Virus record (IMG/VR): IMGVR_UViG_2703718799_000022
Source of the DNA: a virus
Taxonomy: Duplodnaviria; Heunggongvirae; Uroviricota; Caudoviricetes
Length of the DNA: 8,378 nt
Strand: one strand, 5' to 3'
The position numbers and the translations under genes were made by a program. Positions 1 through 8,378 of the stretch are shown one piece after another. Position 1 is the stretch's first letter; every line of letters begins with the position of its first letter. The notes under the pieces are model-generated. The model did no database searches, was not told the origin of the DNA, and worked only from the letters and a program-made list of their open reading frames with translations.

Positions 1-32
1 GCGCTCGTCTGATGTAAGAGATAAAGAAAGCG

Positions 33-284
33 ATGAGCGAAGTAATCATGATTGTCTCTCCCGGCAAATGGGTATCCGAAGAGCAGTTAATTGCGCTGAA
101 AGGAATAAAAAAAGGTACGTTAAAAAAGGCCCGGGAAAAATCGTTTATGGAAGGAAGGGAATATAAGCATGTCGCTCATGACGGTATGCCATGGGATAAC
201 AGTCCATGCTTTTACAACCTGGAAGAAATTGATCGCTGGATTGAGCGCCAGGCATCTGCAAGACCAAGACGTCATCTTGCTTGA
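33..284 (+). CDS. xis: Excisionase-like small DNA-binding protein (recombination directionality factor; resembles the DUF1233 putative-excisionase family of enterobacterial prophages)
   Basis: 83-aa ORF ending 20-35 nt upstream of the integrase start, same strand. The motif 'VSPGKWVSEEQL..GIK.GTL..AREKS..EGREYKHV..DG.PWDNS.C.YNLEEID.WIE' matches my recollection of small prophage excisionases. It is not lambda Xis. Start could be ATG 33 or ATG 48. Confidence 0.7.
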   Translation: MSEVIMIVSPGKWVSEEQLIALKGIKKGTLKKAREKSFMEGREYKHVAHDGMPWDNSPCFYNLEEIDRWIERQASARPRRHLA

Positions 285-318
285 CTAAAAGCAACACGAA
301 CCAATGAGAGAAGCTGAA

Positions 319-1599
319 ATGAAATATCCGACAGGCGTGGAAAACCATGGAGGGAAATTACGTATCTGGTTTGTTTATAAAGGTGTAAGAGTCCGGGAAA
401 ATCTTGGGGTTCCTGACACAGCAAAAAACAGGCGCATTGCAGGTGAGCTACGCGCCTCTGTTTGTTACGCAATAAAAACTGGCGCTTTCGACTATGCAAA
501 ACAGTTTCCCGCCTCACACAATCTGGAAAAATTTGGTGAGGCCCGACAAGATTTAACCATAAAAGAACTGGCTGAAAAATTTCTGGCACTGAAAGAAACT
601 GAAGTCGCAAAAACGTCACTCAACACGTACCGTGCCGTCATCAAAAATATTCTGAGCATAATCGGTGAAAAAAATCTTGCATCATCGATTAATAAAGAAA
701 AATTGCTGGCGGTACGTAAAGAGTTACTGACTGGATACCAGATCCCCAAAAGTAACTATATTGTTACACAACCAGGGAGATCGGCTGTTACCGTAAATAA
801 TTACATGACAAATCTTTACGCCGTGTTCCAGTTTGGTGTTGATAACGGTTATCTGGCAGACAATCCATTTAAGGGGATCTCACCATTAAAGGAGTCGAGA
901 ACCATCCCGGATCCACTTTCGCGGGAGGAGTTTATCCGCCTTATTGACGCGTGCAGAAATCAGCAAGCCAAAAATTTATGGTGTGTTTCCGTTTATACTG
1001 GGATTCGCCCTGGTGAACTCTGTGCGCTTGGGTGGGAAGATATAGATCTGAAAAATGGAACAATGATAATCAGAAGAAATCTGGCAAAAGACCGTTTTAC
1101 AGTACCAAAAACACAGGCGGGAACCAATCGTGTGATTCACCTTATTAAGCCCGCAATCGACGCTCTCCGGAGTCAGATGGCACTAACGAGACTGAGCAAA
1201 GAGCATATCATCGATGTTCACCTCAGAGAATTCGGCAGAACAGAGAAACAAAAATGTACCTTTGTTTTTCAACCTGAAGTGTCAGCGAAAGTAAAAAATT
1301 ATGGTGACCATTTTACCGTTGACTCAATAAGGCAGATGTGGGACGCAGCGGTAAAGCGTGCCGGAATCCGCCATCGCAAATCGTATCAGTCGAGACACAC
1401 TTATGCCTGCTGGTCGTTAACAGCAGGAGCTAACCCGGCATTCATTGCAAACCAGATGGGCCATGCAGATGCGCAAATGGTGTTTCAGGTGTACGGGAAA
1501 TGGATGTCAGAAAATAATAATGCGCAGGTAACGCTGTTAAATACACTGTTAAGCGAGTTTGCCCCAACCATGCCCCATAACGAAGAGATGAAAAGTTAA
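319..1599 (+). CDS. int: Phage integrase, tyrosine site-specific recombinase
   Basis: ORF 304-1599; ATG 319 preferred because GAGAAG lies 5 nt upstream, while ATG 304 has no Shine-Dalgarno. C-terminal catalytic signature present: R in 'GIRPGEL', 'SRHTYAC' (R-H box) and 'GHADAQMVFQVYGKW' (catalytic Tyr). Sits immediately downstream of xis. Sequence is unrelated to lambda Int. Confidence 0.9.
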   Translation: MKYPTGVENHGGKLRIWFVYKGVRVRENLGVPDTAKNRRIAGELRASVCYAIKTGAFDYAKQFPASHNLEKFGEARQDLTIKELAEKFLALKETEVAKTSLNTYRAVIKNILSIIGEKNLASSINKEKLLAVRKELLTGYQIPKSNYIVTQPGRSAVTVNNYMTNLYAVFQFGVDNGYLADNPFKGISPLKESRTIPDPLSREEFIRLIDACRNQQAKNLWCVSVYTGIRPGELCALGWEDIDLKNGTMIIRRNLAKDRFTVPKTQAGTNRVIHLIKPAIDALRSQMALTRLSKEHIIDVHLREFGRTEKQKCTFVFQPEVSAKVKNYGDHFTVDSIRQMWDAAVKRAGIRHRKSYQSRHTYACWSLTAGANPAFIANQMGHADAQMVFQVYGKWMSENNNAQVTLLNTLLSEFAPTMPHNEEMKS

Positions 1600-2000
1600 T
1601 TTTTTATTTATCAATTAGTTAGATTGAATGACTCTTGAAATCCATAATTCACAGGTGTTTTTTCCCATCCTGTGGTTTCCTTGGCGTTTTCTAGGTTTTT
1701 TCAGATAGTTGCATTTTTTTAAAAGCATCCTAAGTTCGATCTCAGTGTCTATCTGGGGCCTATTTCTGTCCCATATATGCCCCAAAAAACTCCCCAACAG
1801 ATAAGTAGTTTTTTCATGGATTTACGCGTAAAATCAATAACGGCTGGAAATCATTCAATACTCGCACTATCGAAAAATTTACCAGCCAACCGCAGCACGT
1901 TCTTGCATAAGGTGTGTCTGCGGTTTTTCAACTATTCAGATACATCACTCCCATCACATTCATTCCTCCACATCAAAGGCATATAGGCTATATCACCTTG
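1600..2000. other. Candidate attP region (core not identified)
   Basis: By analogy with lambda (xis then int then attP), the attachment site is expected within a few hundred bp past the integrase stop. The region is AT-rich with no credible ORF. I could not pinpoint a core or arm-type repeats by eye. Confidence 0.3.
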
Positions 2001-2663: not shown

Positions 2664-2979
2664 TATAATAAACTTACTTTTTTATCATTTTTCCACTTTA
2701 ACAACATTTTGCTCCACTTTTCCACGACCAAACAACTTGAAATCTGGTTAAAATAACACGCAACACTATTCTTCTTCCTTGAGTCCGCCCGGAACTCGAA
2801 AAACAAACCGAGTTAAAGCCATTTTTCACAAAATCGATTTTGGGTCTCACCAAAATTACGGGGTTGCATACGCATTCGTTTATTTTCGAACGTGTACATA
2901 CAAATATGCACAAAAATAATCAAAATTATTTTCTGAGATGCATTATGATATGAACACCAATTTCGTATAGAGTCTCACT

Positions 2980-3570
2980 ATGTCTCGAATTTTTGCTTAC
3001 TGTCGGATATCAACGCTGGATCAGACCATCGAAAATCAACGCCGGGAAATCGAAAGTGCAGGTTTTAAAATCAAACCTCAGCAAATAATCGAAGAACACA
3101 TTAGCGGCTCAGCAGCAACCAGTGAGCGTCCTGGTTTTAACCGGTTGCTTGCTCGCCTGAAATGTGGTGATCAATTGATTGTGACAAAACTGGATCGCCT
3201 TGGTTGTAATGCAATGGATATCAGGAAAACAGTGGAACAACTGACCGAAACAGGTATCAGAGTGCATTGCTTAGCATTGGGGGGCATTGACCTGACCAGT
3301 CCAACAGGAAAAATGATGATGCACGTAATTTCAGCAGTCGCTGAATTTGAACGAGACCTTTTACTTGAACGCACTCATTCCGGGATAGTAAGAGCCCGCG
3401 GCGCAGGGAAACGTTTTGGTCGACCACCTGTGTTAAATGAAGAACAGAAACAGGTGGTATTCGAACGAATTAAGTCAGGTGTAAGTATAAGTGCCATTGC
3501 CCGGGAATTCAAAACCTCGCGGCAAACCATTTTAAGAGCCAAAGCAAAACTTCAGACACCTGACATATAA
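2980..3570 (+). CDS. pin: Serine DNA invertase of the Pin/Hin/Gin/Cin family
   Basis: 196-aa ORF with the N-terminal resolvase catalytic motif '[11 protein letters not shown]' (active-site Ser) and a C-terminal helix-turn-helix '[17 protein letters not shown]'. Near-identical, as far as I recall, to E. coli prophage Pin proteins (PinR/PinE). Located next to tfa as in Rac and e14. Confidence 0.93.
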
Positions 3571-3667
3571 AAAATAATCTCGGTGTGAGATGCTTTACGT
3601 CTTCCAAGCCCCCTTCCTTGCCGTAAATGGAAAGATACATCTAATTATAGAATTTATATGTTTTACC

Positions 3668-4243
3668 CTACGGCAGTGCTGGCCATTCAATATCCTGTGC
3701 AGTTGACGTATCAACACGGTTCAGCAACACCCGATACTTTTTCCAGGCTTCCAGCAATGAGGTTTCTTCCTCCGTTGCGATTTCCAGATCTACAGCATCC
3801 TGAAGTGGCGCAATATGCTCACTGGCTACCTGCATCAGGCTGTTTTTTGTTTCTTCCGCCTCTCGGATCCGGAACAGTTTTTCTGCTTCTGCATCTTTCA
3901 CCCAGGCTGTGCCGTTCCACTTCTGAAACTCCCCTTCCGGCGATAACCAGGTAACATTTTCCGGTAACGGACCGAGTTCAGAAATAAATAACGCGTCCCC
4001 TGACGCTACGTCATAAACCGTTTTACCCCGATGGTCTTCAACGAGATGCCACGATGCCTTATCACTGTTGAAAACAGCCACAAAGCCAGCAGGAATATCT
4101 GGTGGTGCAATATCGGTACTGTTTGCTGGCAGACCTGTATGAGGCGGAATATATGCGTCACCTTCACCAATAAATTCATTAGTTCCGGCCAGCAGATTAT
4201 AAATTTTTATGGTCCGTGGTTGTTCACTCATTCTGAATGCCAT
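3668..4243 (-). CDS. tfa: Tail fibre assembly protein (chaperone for Stf)
   Basis: 191-aa ORF starting [24 protein letters not shown]..., matching lambda Tfa as I recall it. The start ATG (4243-4241) overlaps the stf stop TAA (4245-4243) in the sequence TAATG. Confidence 0.93.
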
Positions 4244-7002
4244 TATGCAAGCCTCACAATATAGTTAAATGCGATGTTTTTGACGGTGTTTTCCGCGTTA
4301 CCAGCAGCGTTAACGGTGATGGTGTGTCCATGTGAACCAATCGCAACGGAGTGCGTATGAGCACCAATACCGACAGTATGCGCGTGTGCACCTGCAGATG
4401 CTGCTGTGCCGGACAGTGAATGGCTATGATTACCATCTGTACTGGTATTCGCTAACCACCCCGTAGACATACCTACTGAGCCTTGTACACCCCAGGTATT
4501 TTGACCTGAGCTTGTATAACCATATTGATAAGTATCTTTAAAAACACTGGGGTTAAATCGACGGCCATCTCTATGGCTGTGATTACCAGCTGCATTCGTG
4601 CTGCCACTTAAACTATGGGTATGCGCACCAGTGTTATTCGTGGATTTAGTGCCGTAATCAAACGACGATGTGGTTTTCGTCCCCAAATCCGTACTGGATG
4701 CGCTGGCGCTGTGGGTATGCGATTTAATGCCGTCCTGTTCCTGAGACAATACGGCCCGACCACTGGCAGGTTTGCCCTTAATCGTCCAGCCACGCATATC
4801 AGGGATCACGCCTGACGGATAAGCCGCTGCAAGTTTCGGGTATGCAGATTTGTCAAAAGCCTGCCCCTGCATCAGGGCATAGCCAGACGAATAAATATCG
4901 TAAGTATCACCAGATGTATTAACCCAGGCAAAATTTGTAAACCCTGTCAATGTGCGCTGCCATAAAGCACCAGTAATCCCCTTCGGATTACCATTACCTG
5001 CACGTAAAACAAGTTCAGATATACCTGCCTGTTGAGGTGACCCCACGTTAAATCCAGCGCCACCAATCAACGTAATTGAAACAACAGAACTCGCCTGTGG
5101 CATGGTTACCGTTGCTAATTTGAACCAACCAGCACCACCGCTGAATGACATTGTTGTTGAGTTAAGCGTACCAATATCTTTCGGCGTCAGTGTTATATCC
5201 GCTGAAAGCGCCTTACCATTCACCTTACGGGCAGAAGGTACCCGACCATTCGCATTGTCATTAGCTGCTTTCACTGCTTTCGGTGTCGCAGCAAGCGTTT
5301 CAGATGTGCTGTTGGTTGCACTACTGAGCTGGACAATTCCTTTTTGTGCTGTCGTAGCGTCCTGTGCGGTGTATTTCCCGTTAGCCAGGTCATACGCGGC
5401 CTTAACGGCTTTTGGCGTTGCCGCCTGTGACTCGGAAGTGCTGTTAGTCGCACTGCTGAGCTGAACTATCCCTTTCTGTCCTGTCGTTGCATCCTGTGCG
5501 GTGTATTTCCCGTTAGCCAGGTCATACGCGGCCTTAACGGCTTTTGGCGTTGCCGCCTGTGACTCGGAAGTGCTGTTGGTCGCACTGCTGAGCTGTACTC
5601 CCCCCTTTTTCGTCGTGCTCGCATCCTCAAGCGCCACGGCGGATGCAATATCCTCTGCACGTTTTGCCGCTGTCTCAGCGCGCGTTGCTGCGGATTCTGC
5701 CGTACTTTTGCTCTGTGCTGCCGCTGCCGCACTGCCAGCAGCCTCTGTCGCCTTCGTGGATGCCGTCGTGGCGCTGCCCCTCGCTGCTGACGCCTGTCTG
5801 GTCGCCTCATCTTTTGAAGCAGACGCAGATGATGCCGATGACGCCGCCGAACTGGCGGACGATGCGGCAGCCGTTTTTGAGGATTCTGCGCTGGTTTCCG
5901 ACGCTTTCGCGTTCGTTTCGGATGTCTTCGCTGCGGAAGCAGACCTCGCTGCTGCGCTGGCCTGTTCAGTGGCTTCGCCAGCCTTCGTTGTGGCTGTTGA
6001 AGCGGATGATGCGGCGCTTTCTGCCGATTTTCCGGCGGCGGTGGCACTGACTGCTGCCTCCTCTGCCTTAATGGACGCCTCACGGGCCGATGATGCAGCT
6101 GCTGTCTCAGAGTCTGCCGCAGCTGAGGCGCTCTGTTCCGCTGCCGTTTCAGAAGACTTAGCATTCGTCTCGGACGTTTTTGCCGCCTTCACGGAATTTC
6201 CTGCCGCCATTGCCGAGGAGGCTGCACTGCTGGCGCTTGTGGAGGCGTTCGTTTCTGATGATTTTGCCGCCTCTTTGGAGGCCGCCGCATCTCTGGCTGA
6301 AGTGGCGGCTTCTGACGCTTTCGTCGTCGCAGTGGATGCAGAAGTGGCTGCTGATTTTTGTGACGCTGCAGCATTCGTTTCTGACGTTTTCGCGGCACCG
6401 GCACTGGTGGCCGCCGCGCTTTTTGAGGACTCTGCAGCGGCAGCACTTTTTGATGCTTCTGTGGCCTTTGTTGATGCTGTTCCTGCGCTGGAAGACGCTG
6501 ACTGAGCCGACGTCGCGGCCTGCCCGGCTGATGTGCTGGCTGCACGTGCTGAGCCTGCAGCATCAGTCGCATGGGTTGCCGCCTCACGGGCTGATGTGCC
6601 GGCATCGCCGGCTGACTTCTTCGCGGCTGCCGTGTTCTGTGCCACCGCGGACGCGTTACGCGCCACCTCTTCCACCATCAGCTCAAAACGGCGCAGTGCC
6701 TCCGGACGGGCATCATCCTCCGTCATGGCACCGAGAAAATCATTCAGCGTACCGGGTCGGGAATCTTCATACACGGTGATGGTCCCGGCATGTGACGGCG
6801 GGAATCCTTCCACCAACAGAATAACGCTGTACTGACCGTACTCAACGTCCATACTGTAACGCCCGGCTTCATCCGGATTTTCTGAGGCCAGCGTGTTCAC
6901 CACCACCGTGGTGCTGTTACGTTTTGCTTTCAGCTGGATTGTGCAGTTCTGTACCGGTTTTCCTGTGCCGTCTTTCAGTACACCTGAAATCTTTACTGCC
7001 AT
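4243..7002 (-). CDS. stf: Side tail fibre protein (lambda Stf-like), apparently intact
   Basis: Track ORF 4243-7008 begins at a GTG; the ATG two codons in (7002-7000) gives [26 protein letters not shown]..., the lambda Stf N-terminus as I recall it. Long Ala/Ser/Thr-rich shaft, three tandem 44-aa repeats, His-rich HxH motifs near the C-terminus, and the C-terminal '[18 protein letters not shown]' typical of Stf and T4 gp37-type fibres. Confidence 0.93.
5240..5606 (-). repeat. Tandem direct repeat, 132-bp period, about three copies, inside stf
   Basis: 'ctgagctg' recurs at 5324, 5456 and 5588 (spacing exactly 132). Copies 5341-5463 and 5473-5595 are nearly identical at DNA level; the third (lowest-coordinate) copy is more diverged. 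Encodes the 44-aa unit '[44 protein letters not shown]'. Confidence 0.85.
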
Positions 7003-7011
7003 ATTCACCCC

Positions 7012-7066: not shown

Positions 7067-7666
7067 TCAGAATTTATAACCGACACCCACGATGAAACTG
7101 TTGGTACGCCAGTCACCGCTGCCGGAGCCTTCATAAGCGACGTCAACGGCCACGGATTCGGTCGGGTTAAACTGCACGCCAGCTCCCCACGCCAGAGACG
7201 TGTTGCTGTGGCGACCGTCATCACTTCCGGTCAGCACATCGTGCGTTTTCCCCTTGTTGTCAGTTACGCGGATATAATCTCCGGAGAAAGTCGAAACACG
7301 GCTGTAAGCCATACCCGCCATCGCATACGCGCTGAACCATTCATTCACGCGCACAGACGGCCCCGCCATCACGCTGAACCAGCGGTTACGCACGGAATCT
7401 TCATGCCAGCGGGTATCGCTGTAATGCGTTTTTTGCTCATCTTCAGCGTTGGCATAACTGAATGACGTAATCAGCCCCAGCGTGTCCGTAAACTCATAAC
7501 GGTATTTCACGTTAATCCCGTTCAGATTATCGCTGCCGGGAGCGTTCGTACGGGCATGAAGATACCCTGCGCTCAGTGTGGCCTGCTGCTCAGACGCCCA
7601 TGCAGGCGCACCGGATACGGCCAGACAGATGGCTGCGGACAAAATGGCTGCACAAACTTTACGCAT
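7067..7666 (-). CDS. lom: Outer membrane beta-barrel protein Lom (Ail/Lom/PagC family)
   Basis: 199-aa [29 protein letters not shown]... with a signal peptide and the C-terminal 'FIVGVGYKF' beta-barrel end; matches lambda Lom as I recall it. GAGAGG lies 6 nt upstream of the ATG. Sits between J and stf as in lambda. Confidence 0.95.
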
Positions 7667-7736: not shown

Positions 7737-8378
7737 TCAACGAATACTGATGCCGGAAGCAGCTTTTTTGGTCACAATCACCGTACAATCGGTGATATTG
7801 CCTGCCCCCTGATTGCCTTTCTGGAAAATCTTAAACTCCAGAGTGACGCTACCACCACCACTAGGCATATCAATAACTGCACTGTAACTACCGGGAATGG
7901 CCCCTTTAGTTTCTCTGGATGCGATTAATACGCCGTTTTTGCGAACTTCAAAACCATAACCCGTGTATCGCGTGCCTCCTGGGTTATTTCCGCTCCCCGG
8001 ATCGTCATACGCTATACCGTTAAAAATAATGGGCGGAATAATAATCTGGCGGTCAAAGTTATGATCATCGCTGATGGTGACTGTAACCGTACCGTTTGGT
8101 GTTTCCGTGTTACCCCACGTACCGACTTTTTTCGGGAAGGCTTTTGATACAGCTTTAACGAAATCCCCTCTGACCTGGGTCGCCTCCAGCATGCCCTTAA
8201 TCGTACAGTTCTGGTTAATCGTGACATTGTTGAGCGTTCCTGAGTTCGCATTCACACTGCCACTGATATCCGCATTTTTAGCGGTCAGCTTTCCGTCTGA
8301 TGTCAGGGAAAATACCGGAGGACTGCCACCGCTGGTAATGGTGGGGGCCGTCAGGCGCTTCAGGAACACGTCGTTCAT
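7737..8378 (-). CDS. J: Tail tip host-specificity protein J, C-terminal ~213 aa only (5' part of the gene lies beyond the window end)
   Basis: Synteny J-lom-stf-tfa as in lambda. The motif 'LTAKNADISGSVNANSGTL.NVTI..NCTI.G' and terminal '...KKAASGISIR' resemble the lambda J C-terminal region as I recall it. The ORF reaches the window edge, so it is partial. Confidence 0.8.
   Translation of the reverse strand: MNDVFLKRLTAPTITSGGSPPVFSLTSDGKLTAKNADISGSVNANSGTLNNVTINQNCTIKGMLEATQVRGDFVKAVSKAFPKKVGTWGNTETPNGTVTVTISDDHNFDRQIIIPPIIFNGIAYDDPGSGNNPGGTRYTGYGFEVRKNGVLIASRETKGAIPGSYSAVIDMPSGGGSVTLEFKIFQKGNQGAGNITDCTVIVTKKAASGISIR

Follow-up and report, generated by a model that had tools for sequence, protein, structure and literature searches.

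The DNA analysed here is a stretch of 8,378 nucleotides from IMG/VR virus record IMGVR_UViG_2703718799_000022 (the window), and the gene under study is pin (2980–3570, plus strand), which encodes a small serine recombinase of 196 amino acids with Pfam Resolvase and HTH_7 domains. The window comes from enterohaemorrhagic Escherichia coli of the O26 type, where it forms the tail-fibre end of a lambdoid prophage, and is 100% identical to several O26 chromosomes, e.g. NZ_CP074921.1. Downstream of pin, and convergent with it, is the tail fibre assembly gene tfa (3668–4243, minus strand; 191 amino acids, Pfam Caudo_TAP), followed by the side tail fibre gene stf (4243–7008, minus strand; 921 amino acids, Pfam phage_tail_N, Phage_fiber_2 and Collar). 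Between pin and tfa lies a gap of 97 bp (3571–3667), which consists of 8 bp, the relic of a transposon terminal repeat, and 54 bp of phage DNA. Upstream of pin on the plus strand are a ydfK/ynaE-like gene (2430–2663, annotated in NZ_CP074921.1), which was found by tblastn at an unchanged distance from pin in all Escherichia and Shigella loci examined, and a small ynfT/ynaM-like open reading frame (ORF; 2248–2361), which is annotated in the same chromosome as YnaM/YnfT family and occurs in the same order in the Rac and Qin prophages of K-12. The genes ynfT, ydfK, pin, tfa and stf form a conserved module. An earlier sequence-only reading had described pin as an invertase, compared it with those of Mu, P1 and e14, which flank an invertible fibre segment, and noted a single stf-tfa set and no convincing crossover site near pin. 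Its coordinates, gene calls, convergent arrangement of pin and tfa, and gap were confirmed by ORF and Pfam analysis.

Positions 2900–3609 of the window aligned to positions 3096–3807 of a 3814-bp element (locus L027, 2824–6637) on pRM10386-2, a plasmid of an O26 strain, with 82% identity. The plasmid element is bounded by perfect 38-bp terminal inverted repeats, GGGGTCCGCTTGGAAAACGGAAAATATCCCACGCTAAG, and is flanked on both sides by the 5-bp direct repeat TTTTA, a target duplication. It contains a 914-amino-acid ORF with DUF4158 and DDE_Tnp_Tn3 domains (the transposase gene, tnpA) and, divergent from it, a tnpR gene encoding a protein of 196 amino acids. The TnpR protein is 84% identical to Pin, which places Pin close to the resolvase of an intact Tn3-family transposon. 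Proteins of this kind, encoded by plasmids and 196 amino acids in length, were the nearest non-phage relatives of Pin (239 records at 80–90% identity and 1521 at 60–80%), and the DNA-binding (recognition) helix of Pin was nearly identical to that of the plasmid TnpR.

The intergenic region of the plasmid element (160 bp) contained a 26-bp dyad with an 8-bp spacer nearest the transposase gene, then a 32-bp dyad with a 14-bp spacer, and a further half-dyad beside the recombinase gene, all of them built from half-sites of the TGTMCGAAA type. The same layout was found upstream of relatives of 61–77% identity in Photorhabdus, Erwinia, Mycoavidus, an Oxalobacteraceae metagenome-assembled genome and Parasedimentitalea. 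Judged by symmetry, spacing and conservation, the dyads are putative res subsites of the transposon, with the 26-bp dyad (site I) as the presumed crossover site. In Erwinia oleae (locus L019, 1268–2652) two PinQ-family paralogues, 71% and 77% identical to the window protein, were placed back to back, and the 203 bp between them were crowded with TGTMCGAAA dyads in mirror-image arrangement.

Decayed counterparts of these features were located on both sides of pin. When aligned to the sequence between tnpA and tnpR in the plasmid element, the region at 2884–2979 (plus strand) was recognized as the decayed res and promoter region of the ancestral transposon; identity was 90% in the 45 bp immediately upstream of the ATG, approximately 60% over 2876–2935, and random beyond. 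It contains, on the plus strand, what is left of the right half of res site I as placed by the plasmid alignment (TTTCGAACG, 2884–2892), a degenerate homologue of site II, the 32-bp dyad (2905–2938; 9.4 bits under a family half-site matrix vs 28.8 bits in the plasmid), a −10-like TATGAT (2944–2949), and a well-kept half-site (TTTCGTATA, 2961–2969; 12.4 bits). No dyad was present in the window at the position of res site I, and an intact res with crossover and accessory subsites was not found upstream of the gene. Downstream of pin, a relic of the 38-bp terminal inverted repeat begins with GGGG, as such repeats do, and reads GGGG..GCTTGGAAGACGTAAAGCATCTCACACCGAG on the minus strand (3579–3613); 27 of 35 aligned bases were identical to GGGGTCCGCTTGGAAAACGGAAAATATCCCACGCTAAG, with a 3-nt deletion. 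Homology between phage and plasmid stops at the outer GGGG end of this relic, which accounts for most of the gap sequence that had been searched earlier for a crossover site. No remnant of the transposase was found in the window; tblastn with the plasmid TnpA gave no hit below E = 0.07, and no DDE_Tnp_Tn3 gene is adjacent to pin.

The family matrix was derived from the TGTMCGAAA half-sites of the relatives, and dyads were scanned with spacers of 4–18 bp. The best dyad in the window scored 10.6 bits, against 25–31 bits in the relatives and a chance maximum of 12.8 ± 2.9. No family dyad above chance was detected in the window, Rac, Qin or the 48-kb complete genome of Escherichia phage Turner (PP925837), an isolated lambdoid phage. 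The positive-control scores of this matrix are partly circular, since the control loci were those used to build it.

Crossover sites of the Din invertases were sought using a 26-bp weight matrix made from 14 published hix, gix, cix, pix, mix and bix sites (Table 3 of PMC3241671), with the e14 and Mu entries cross-checked against retrieved sequence. Neither strand of the window contained a Din-type site; the best score was 6.1 bits vs 18.8–36.1 bits for real sites, in agreement with the sequence-only reading, which had found no convincing hix/gix-like site near pin. In 500 first-order-Markov randomizations of the window the chance maximum was 8.5 ± 3.1 bits, and 77% reached the observed 6.1 bits. 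The best score in the complete Turner genome was 14.2 bits, with no partner site (chance 11.5 ± 2.5, maximum 20.7); this match (TTATCGCAAATCAAAGGTTTTAATTG, 42216–42241 of locus L037) was inside the chance range. The stf gene was free of Din-type and resolvase-type sites in the matrix scans. Inverted crossover sites flanking tfa and the 3′ region of stf were looked for in the window with the matrix and by an inverted-repeat search, and none was found; no convincing inverted repeat was present around tfa or the stf 3′ region, and the longest generic inverted-repeat pairs of the window, with 71–90% matches, were at unrelated places.

A second fibre set was sought by tblastn against the window using its own Tfa and Stf C-terminus, e14 TfaP, TfaE and StfP, and Mu U, U′ and Sv as queries. 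Matches were confined to 3671–4243 and 4244–5200, which upholds the single stf-tfa set; tfa is the only Tfa-like locus of the window, and no second tfa or stf fragment was found in it. Outside Escherichia and Shigella, no tfa or stf was seen near the relatives at the loci examined.

The protein itself also falls outside the Din invertases. Pin shared 38% identity with each of e14 PinE and Mu Gin, against 79% between those two. Among 520 records of the phage collection with a match to Pin, 11 were at 95% identity or more, one was at 60–80% and 508 were below 60%, so that almost nothing lies between the PinQ-type clade and the true invertases. The best sequence match of Pin in the PDB was Gin (E = 1e-29), with Tn3/γδ resolvase weaker (E = 1e-22), and NCBIfam gave sub-threshold matches only, e.g. 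to the Mpi invertase (87 bits vs a cut-off of 272). On sequence grounds the window gene is not an invertase of the Hin/Gin/Cin/Pin type, and the premise that it should flank a fibre switch was not supported. The lack of a hix/gix-type site is to be expected if the gene is derived from a resolvase and not from a Din invertase.

Of the catalytic residues, Tyr7, Arg9, Ser11 and Arg73 are present in Pin, and the position of D36 is occupied by Glu in the whole family. The second Arg of the DRLGR motif is replaced by Cys76 (codon TGT, 3205–3207, plus strand), which aligns to residue 71 of γδ resolvase (chain 2gm4_A) and to the Arg of Gin; the full catalytic set (Y6, R8, S10, D36, R68 and R71 in Tn3 numbering) is incomplete in Pin. 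All 13 full-length phage-type copies of the gene that were compared encode Cys76, and Cys occupied the R71 position in 14 of the 15 cluster members read and in a divergent phage-context lineage (P0038, locus L029) with 84% amino acid identity and the same 97-bp gap. Of the 148 proteins retrieved, 125 have Arg at this position, among them all plasmid copies examined. The Tn3 resolvase mutations R71A and R71K abolished resolution in vivo and lowered cleavage approximately 1000-fold (PMC2794168), and by extrapolation from these mutants catalysis by Pin may be impaired by Cys76.

The ratio of non-synonymous to synonymous substitution rates (dN/dS) between phage and plasmid copies was 0.15. Within the clade, copies approximately 99% identical differed by just 0–2 synonymous and 2–4 non-synonymous substitutions per pair, too few for a reading of dN/dS. 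From some 45 bp before the ATG up to approximately nucleotide 555, a prophage-context pin in E. coli GCA_910593615.1 (P0037; locus L030, 6001–6591) matched the plasmid tnpR at 95–100% identity. The core of this pin carries Arg, its flanks are phage-type, and an IS66 element interrupts the neighbouring tfa; the plasmid-type core within phage-type flanks implies gene conversion, that is, ongoing exchange between plasmid transposon and prophage copies. In strain RM10386 (O26), the chromosome of which carries the window at 100% identity, plasmids NZ_CP028124.1 and NZ_CP028125.1 each contained an Arg-bearing, 84%-identical homologue, so that one cell contains the prophage protein of the Cys type together with res sites that are presumably cognate to it.

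It is very probable that pin at 2980–3570 is the stranded tnpR of a small, cargo-less Tn3-family transposon that was once inserted just downstream of tfa, and that it has no substrate in cis. According to this history, such a transposon would have inserted just beyond tfa in an ancestral lambdoid phage, and its transposase half, together with the crossover site (res site I), would have been lost later. The right end, from about 2884/2900 to 3613, would have survived as part of a decayed res, tnpR and a decayed terminal inverted repeat. The tnpR gene with its promoter could then have spread as a passenger of the ynfT-ydfK-pin-tfa-stf block exchanged among lambdoid phages. The protein would have kept DNA binding for the most part and would catalyse weakly at best. 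It could have a biological effect only in trans, either on the e14 P segment, as reported for PinQ, or on the res of related transposons on resident plasmids. With no recombination substrate in cis, stf-tfa is a fixed, non-switching fibre module.

Several points weigh against the derivation from a decayed transposon and the loss of activity that goes with it. The effect of the Arg-to-Cys change is extrapolated from the R71A and R71K mutants of Tn3 resolvase, and the res subsites of the plasmid element were deduced from sequence symmetry and conservation, not from footprinting. The pin ORF is intact in thousands of genomes, and dN/dS was 0.39 between two Cys-bearing phage lineages at dS = 0.22, which is not neutral; the protein is thus probably kept for something and is no mere fossil. 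Finally, if PinQ drives inversion of the e14 P segment, as a peer-reviewed study reports (PMC12529663), the protein would have to be catalytically competent in spite of Cys76.

That last report is the starting point of the strongest competing explanation, in which Pin is a functional orphan invertase working in trans: its targets would be Din-type sites at other places of the host genome, e.g. pix of an e14-like element, and it would switch fibre-like genes there. This is possible, though doubtful, and it is compatible with a transposon origin, the issue being whether the protein itself is the catalyst. Upon over-production of PinQ the inverted form of the e14 P segment rose from about 30% to about 88% (Kirigo et al., NAR 2025, PMC12529663). 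The same study found that deletion of pinQ lowered the inversion, that the inversion yields a chimeric fibre-like protein which blocks T2 adsorption, that survivors of T2 infection carry the inversion, and that the effect is abolished by loss of stfP, stfE or e14; PinR was treated as equivalent to PinQ. The window protein is only 3–4 residues removed from PinQ and PinR. Among the Din invertases, Hin, Gin, Cin and Pin cross-complement one another, which would also favour action of Pin on foreign sites.

Direct catalysis by Pin is made less probable by the missing R71-equivalent Arg and by the recognition helix, which is nearly that of the plasmid TnpR, a protein associated with TGTMCGAAA dyads. 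Under the family matrix the pix half-sites scored 4.3 bits vs 12.8–15.7 bits for real half-sites, and their register also differs. Deletion of pinE locked the P segment despite the presence of pinQ and pinR (PMC12529663), a result not decisive alone because the deletion may also remove a cis enhancer. The study reports neither a catalytic-serine mutant of PinQ nor an in vitro reaction. The proposal of the sequence-only reading that Pin is an orphan acting in trans has two parts. The orphan state held, as no cis substrate was found in the window or the Turner genome. Action in trans stands as a literature report for the approximately 99%-identical PinQ and PinR (PMC12529663), with direct catalysis doubted from the features just given.

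A different account of the same data, rather unlikely but consistent with them, is that PinQ/PinR-type proteins are catalytically crippled resolvase derivatives kept by lambdoid phages as trans-acting DNA-binding factors and not as recombinases. Such proteins might modulate recombination catalysed by a true invertase such as PinE, which would explain the locked P segment of the pinE deletion despite the presence of pinQ and pinR. Alternatively, they might bind the res of related Tn5403-like plasmid transposons and repress their resolvase or poison it in mixed oligomers; RM10386 has the prophage gene together with two Arg-bearing plasmid copies. A retained non-catalytic function is compatible with the intact ORF in half of the complete E. 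coli genomes and with the dN/dS of 0.39.

The second proposal of the sequence-only reading, that pin is the relic of a deleted invertible segment whose ancestor (stf-tfa-tfa′-stf′-pin, as in Mu, P1 and e14) lost its second fibre set and crossover sites, is very improbable. Position alone favours it, as the recombinase adjoins tail-fibre genes in Mu, P1 and e14 too. The gene lies outside the Din clade, the gap holds the relic of a transposon terminal repeat and not half a crossover site, no second tfa or stf fragment exists in the window, and no relative at 55–92% identity was found beside a two-set fibre segment. In pin-less prophages the homology of tfa begins at window positions 3677–3681, a pattern of insertion and not of deletion. 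The proposal was rejected, being contradicted by flanks of Tn3-family origin, a partial res upstream and a terminal inverted repeat downstream.

Hardly credible, finally, is a local inversion or deletion system with an unrecognized type of site inside the window, for which an 18/20 inverted repeat (1499–1518, AATGGATGTCAGAAAATAAT; 2925–2944, ATTATTTTCTGAGATGCATT) and the recurrence of TCTCAC-type motifs around pin could be cited, but no dyad of family half-sites exceeded chance, the pin-tfa junction was invariant across the E. coli genomes sampled, only e14 showed inversions when Qin and Rac sequences were queried by BLAST (PMC12529663), and the left arm of the repeat is in the int of a neighbouring prophage and absent from O26:H11 11368, Rac, Qin and Turner, so that the pair cannot belong to the module. 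The left arm occupies the 3′ end of int, and the right arm overlaps the decayed site II homologue upstream of pin; the repeat is probably due to chance, since most carriers of the pin module are without that int.

The probable derivation of pin from a stranded tnpR concerns a gene that is otherwise well known. It is a PinQ/PinR-type recombinase, annotated, common in lambdoid prophages and found here in its usual context. The gene order of K-12 is stfR-tfaR-pinR-ynaE-ynaM in Rac and ynfT-ydfK-pinQ-tfaQ-stfQ in Qin, with a pin of 591 nt, a tfa of 576 nt and a gap of 97 bp in each; the gap is of identical length in locus L029. Across an alignment of 776 bases that runs from upstream of pin through the gap into the 3′ end of tfa, the window differed from pinR and from pinQ at about 5 positions (approximately 99.4% DNA identity), and the Pin protein was approximately 99% identical to K-12 PinQ and PinR. 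Near-identity and synteny (ynfT-ydfK-pin-97 bp-tfa-stf) together place the window gene with PinQ and PinR. In phage Turner the Pin protein is identical, the arrangement is the same and there is again one stf-tfa set, and in O26:H11 11368 the module is located at a truncated ydfJ, the attachment locus of Qin.

The 3′ end of pin with the downstream 50 bp, which include the repeat relic, was present in 2705 of 5426 complete E. coli genomes, and the pin-gap-tfa junction at 80% coverage or more in 2184 of them. Partial matches to the junction were sampled and were of two classes: mosaics of tfa alleles with the break inside tfa, and the pin-less prophages mentioned above, in which homology starts a few bases beyond the tfa 3′ end. 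No alternative pin-tfa junction was seen among these sampled matches. Copies of ydfK-pin-tfa with 97–99% identity were also found in short contigs from assemblies that bear the names Alistipes, Draconibacterium, Caldithrix and Nocardioides (loci L009, L012, L013 and L026); contamination with E. coli is the almost certain cause, and it may also explain the trematode record that PMC12529663 lists as carrying PinQ. Two apparent pseudogene copies (L022 and L023), with 55–72% protein identity but 94–95% DNA identity and many single-base gaps (possible assembly indel errors), were not used.

The remaining genes of the window are lom (7067–7666, minus strand) and the 3′ end of J (7737–8378, minus strand) to the right of stf, and xis (33–284, plus strand) and int (304–1599, plus strand) at the left end. 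The last two (window 1–1640) are from a different, neighbouring prophage and not from that of the pin-tfa-stf module. The match of O26:H11 11368 to the window begins at 1634, with the truncated host gene ydfJ on its left, and in the lineage of the window an exo-xis-int arm abuts in place of ydfJ, which implies two prophages in tandem at the ydfJ (Qin) site with a junction near 1600–1640. The 11368 chromosome is rearranged relative to K-12 in the icd region. In several strains 100% identical to the window the region was split by insertions of the IS600/IS3 family (3–5 aligned pieces, integrase annotated twice), an insertion polymorphism within the prophage pair. The stf gene has a long, repetitive middle rich in Ala and Ser and three repeats of about 44 amino acids, which create long spurious ORFs on the opposite strand, e.g. 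5501–6505. Its length is polymorphic among otherwise identical strains, with 921 amino acids in the window vs 986 in NZ_CP074921.1, whose match to the window is approximately 200 bp longer.

With the label "Pin / DNA invertase" on so common a prophage gene, annotators are led to look for an invertible fibre segment where there is none, and stranded Tn3-family tnpR would be a better description. The phage-defence mechanism published in 2025 rests on PinQ as an invertase acting on another prophage. Considering the transposon origin, the loss of the gene's own res, the poor match to pix and the fixed Arg-to-Cys change, direct catalysis by PinQ is a question to test and not an assumption. None of these four points, the transposon-relic anatomy and the Arg-to-Cys change of PinQ-type genes included, was found in the searchable literature; they are modest additions to a known gene and not a new system.

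Compared with known systems, the window protein is closest to PinQ (Qin) and PinR (Rac) of K-12, which share its length of 196 amino acids, differ from it at 3–4 amino acids, and have the same order of ynfT/ynaM, ydfK/ynaE, pin, the 97-bp gap, tfa and stf. Unlike the K-12 copies, the module of the window is in a fuller lambdoid prophage which has kept lom and J and which abuts the xis-int of a second prophage. The Din invertases Hin, Gin, Cin and Pin(E) resemble Pin in the small serine recombinase fold with a C-terminal helix-turn-helix and in their position beside phage tail-fibre genes. They differ in forming a tight clade (79% identity within the family vs 38% to Pin), in two inverted 26-bp sites (TTC...AAACC-NN-GGTTT...GAA) adjoining the gene, which the window lacks, and in an invertible segment with alternative gene ends or sets, where the window has one tfa and one stf. 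The multi-dyad res upstream of the gene in the relatives of Pin is a resolvase arrangement, unlike that of the Din invertases.

The plasmid TnpR transposon (tnpA-res-tnpR, 3.8 kb, on IncF, IncI and IncK plasmids) has 84% amino acid and 82% DNA identity to the window, and the part of res nearest the promoter is homologous too, as is the right terminal repeat. In the window, tnpA and res site I are missing, site II and the terminal repeat are no longer intact, and Cys stands in place of the catalytic Arg. The organization of this transposon resembles that of cargo-less elements such as Tn5403, and one published plasmid annotation puts "pinR" directly beside Tn5403 (PMC13253593), which is in keeping with this resemblance. 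The Tn3 and γδ resolvases belong to the same family as Pin, and their layout, tnpA ← res → tnpR, is that of the closest intact relative of Pin. The resolvase motif of γδ res is TGTCYNNTA, which the half-site TGTCCGAAA resembles, and the subsites measure 26 and 32 bp in the transposon family of Pin vs 28 and 34 bp in Tn3 and γδ.

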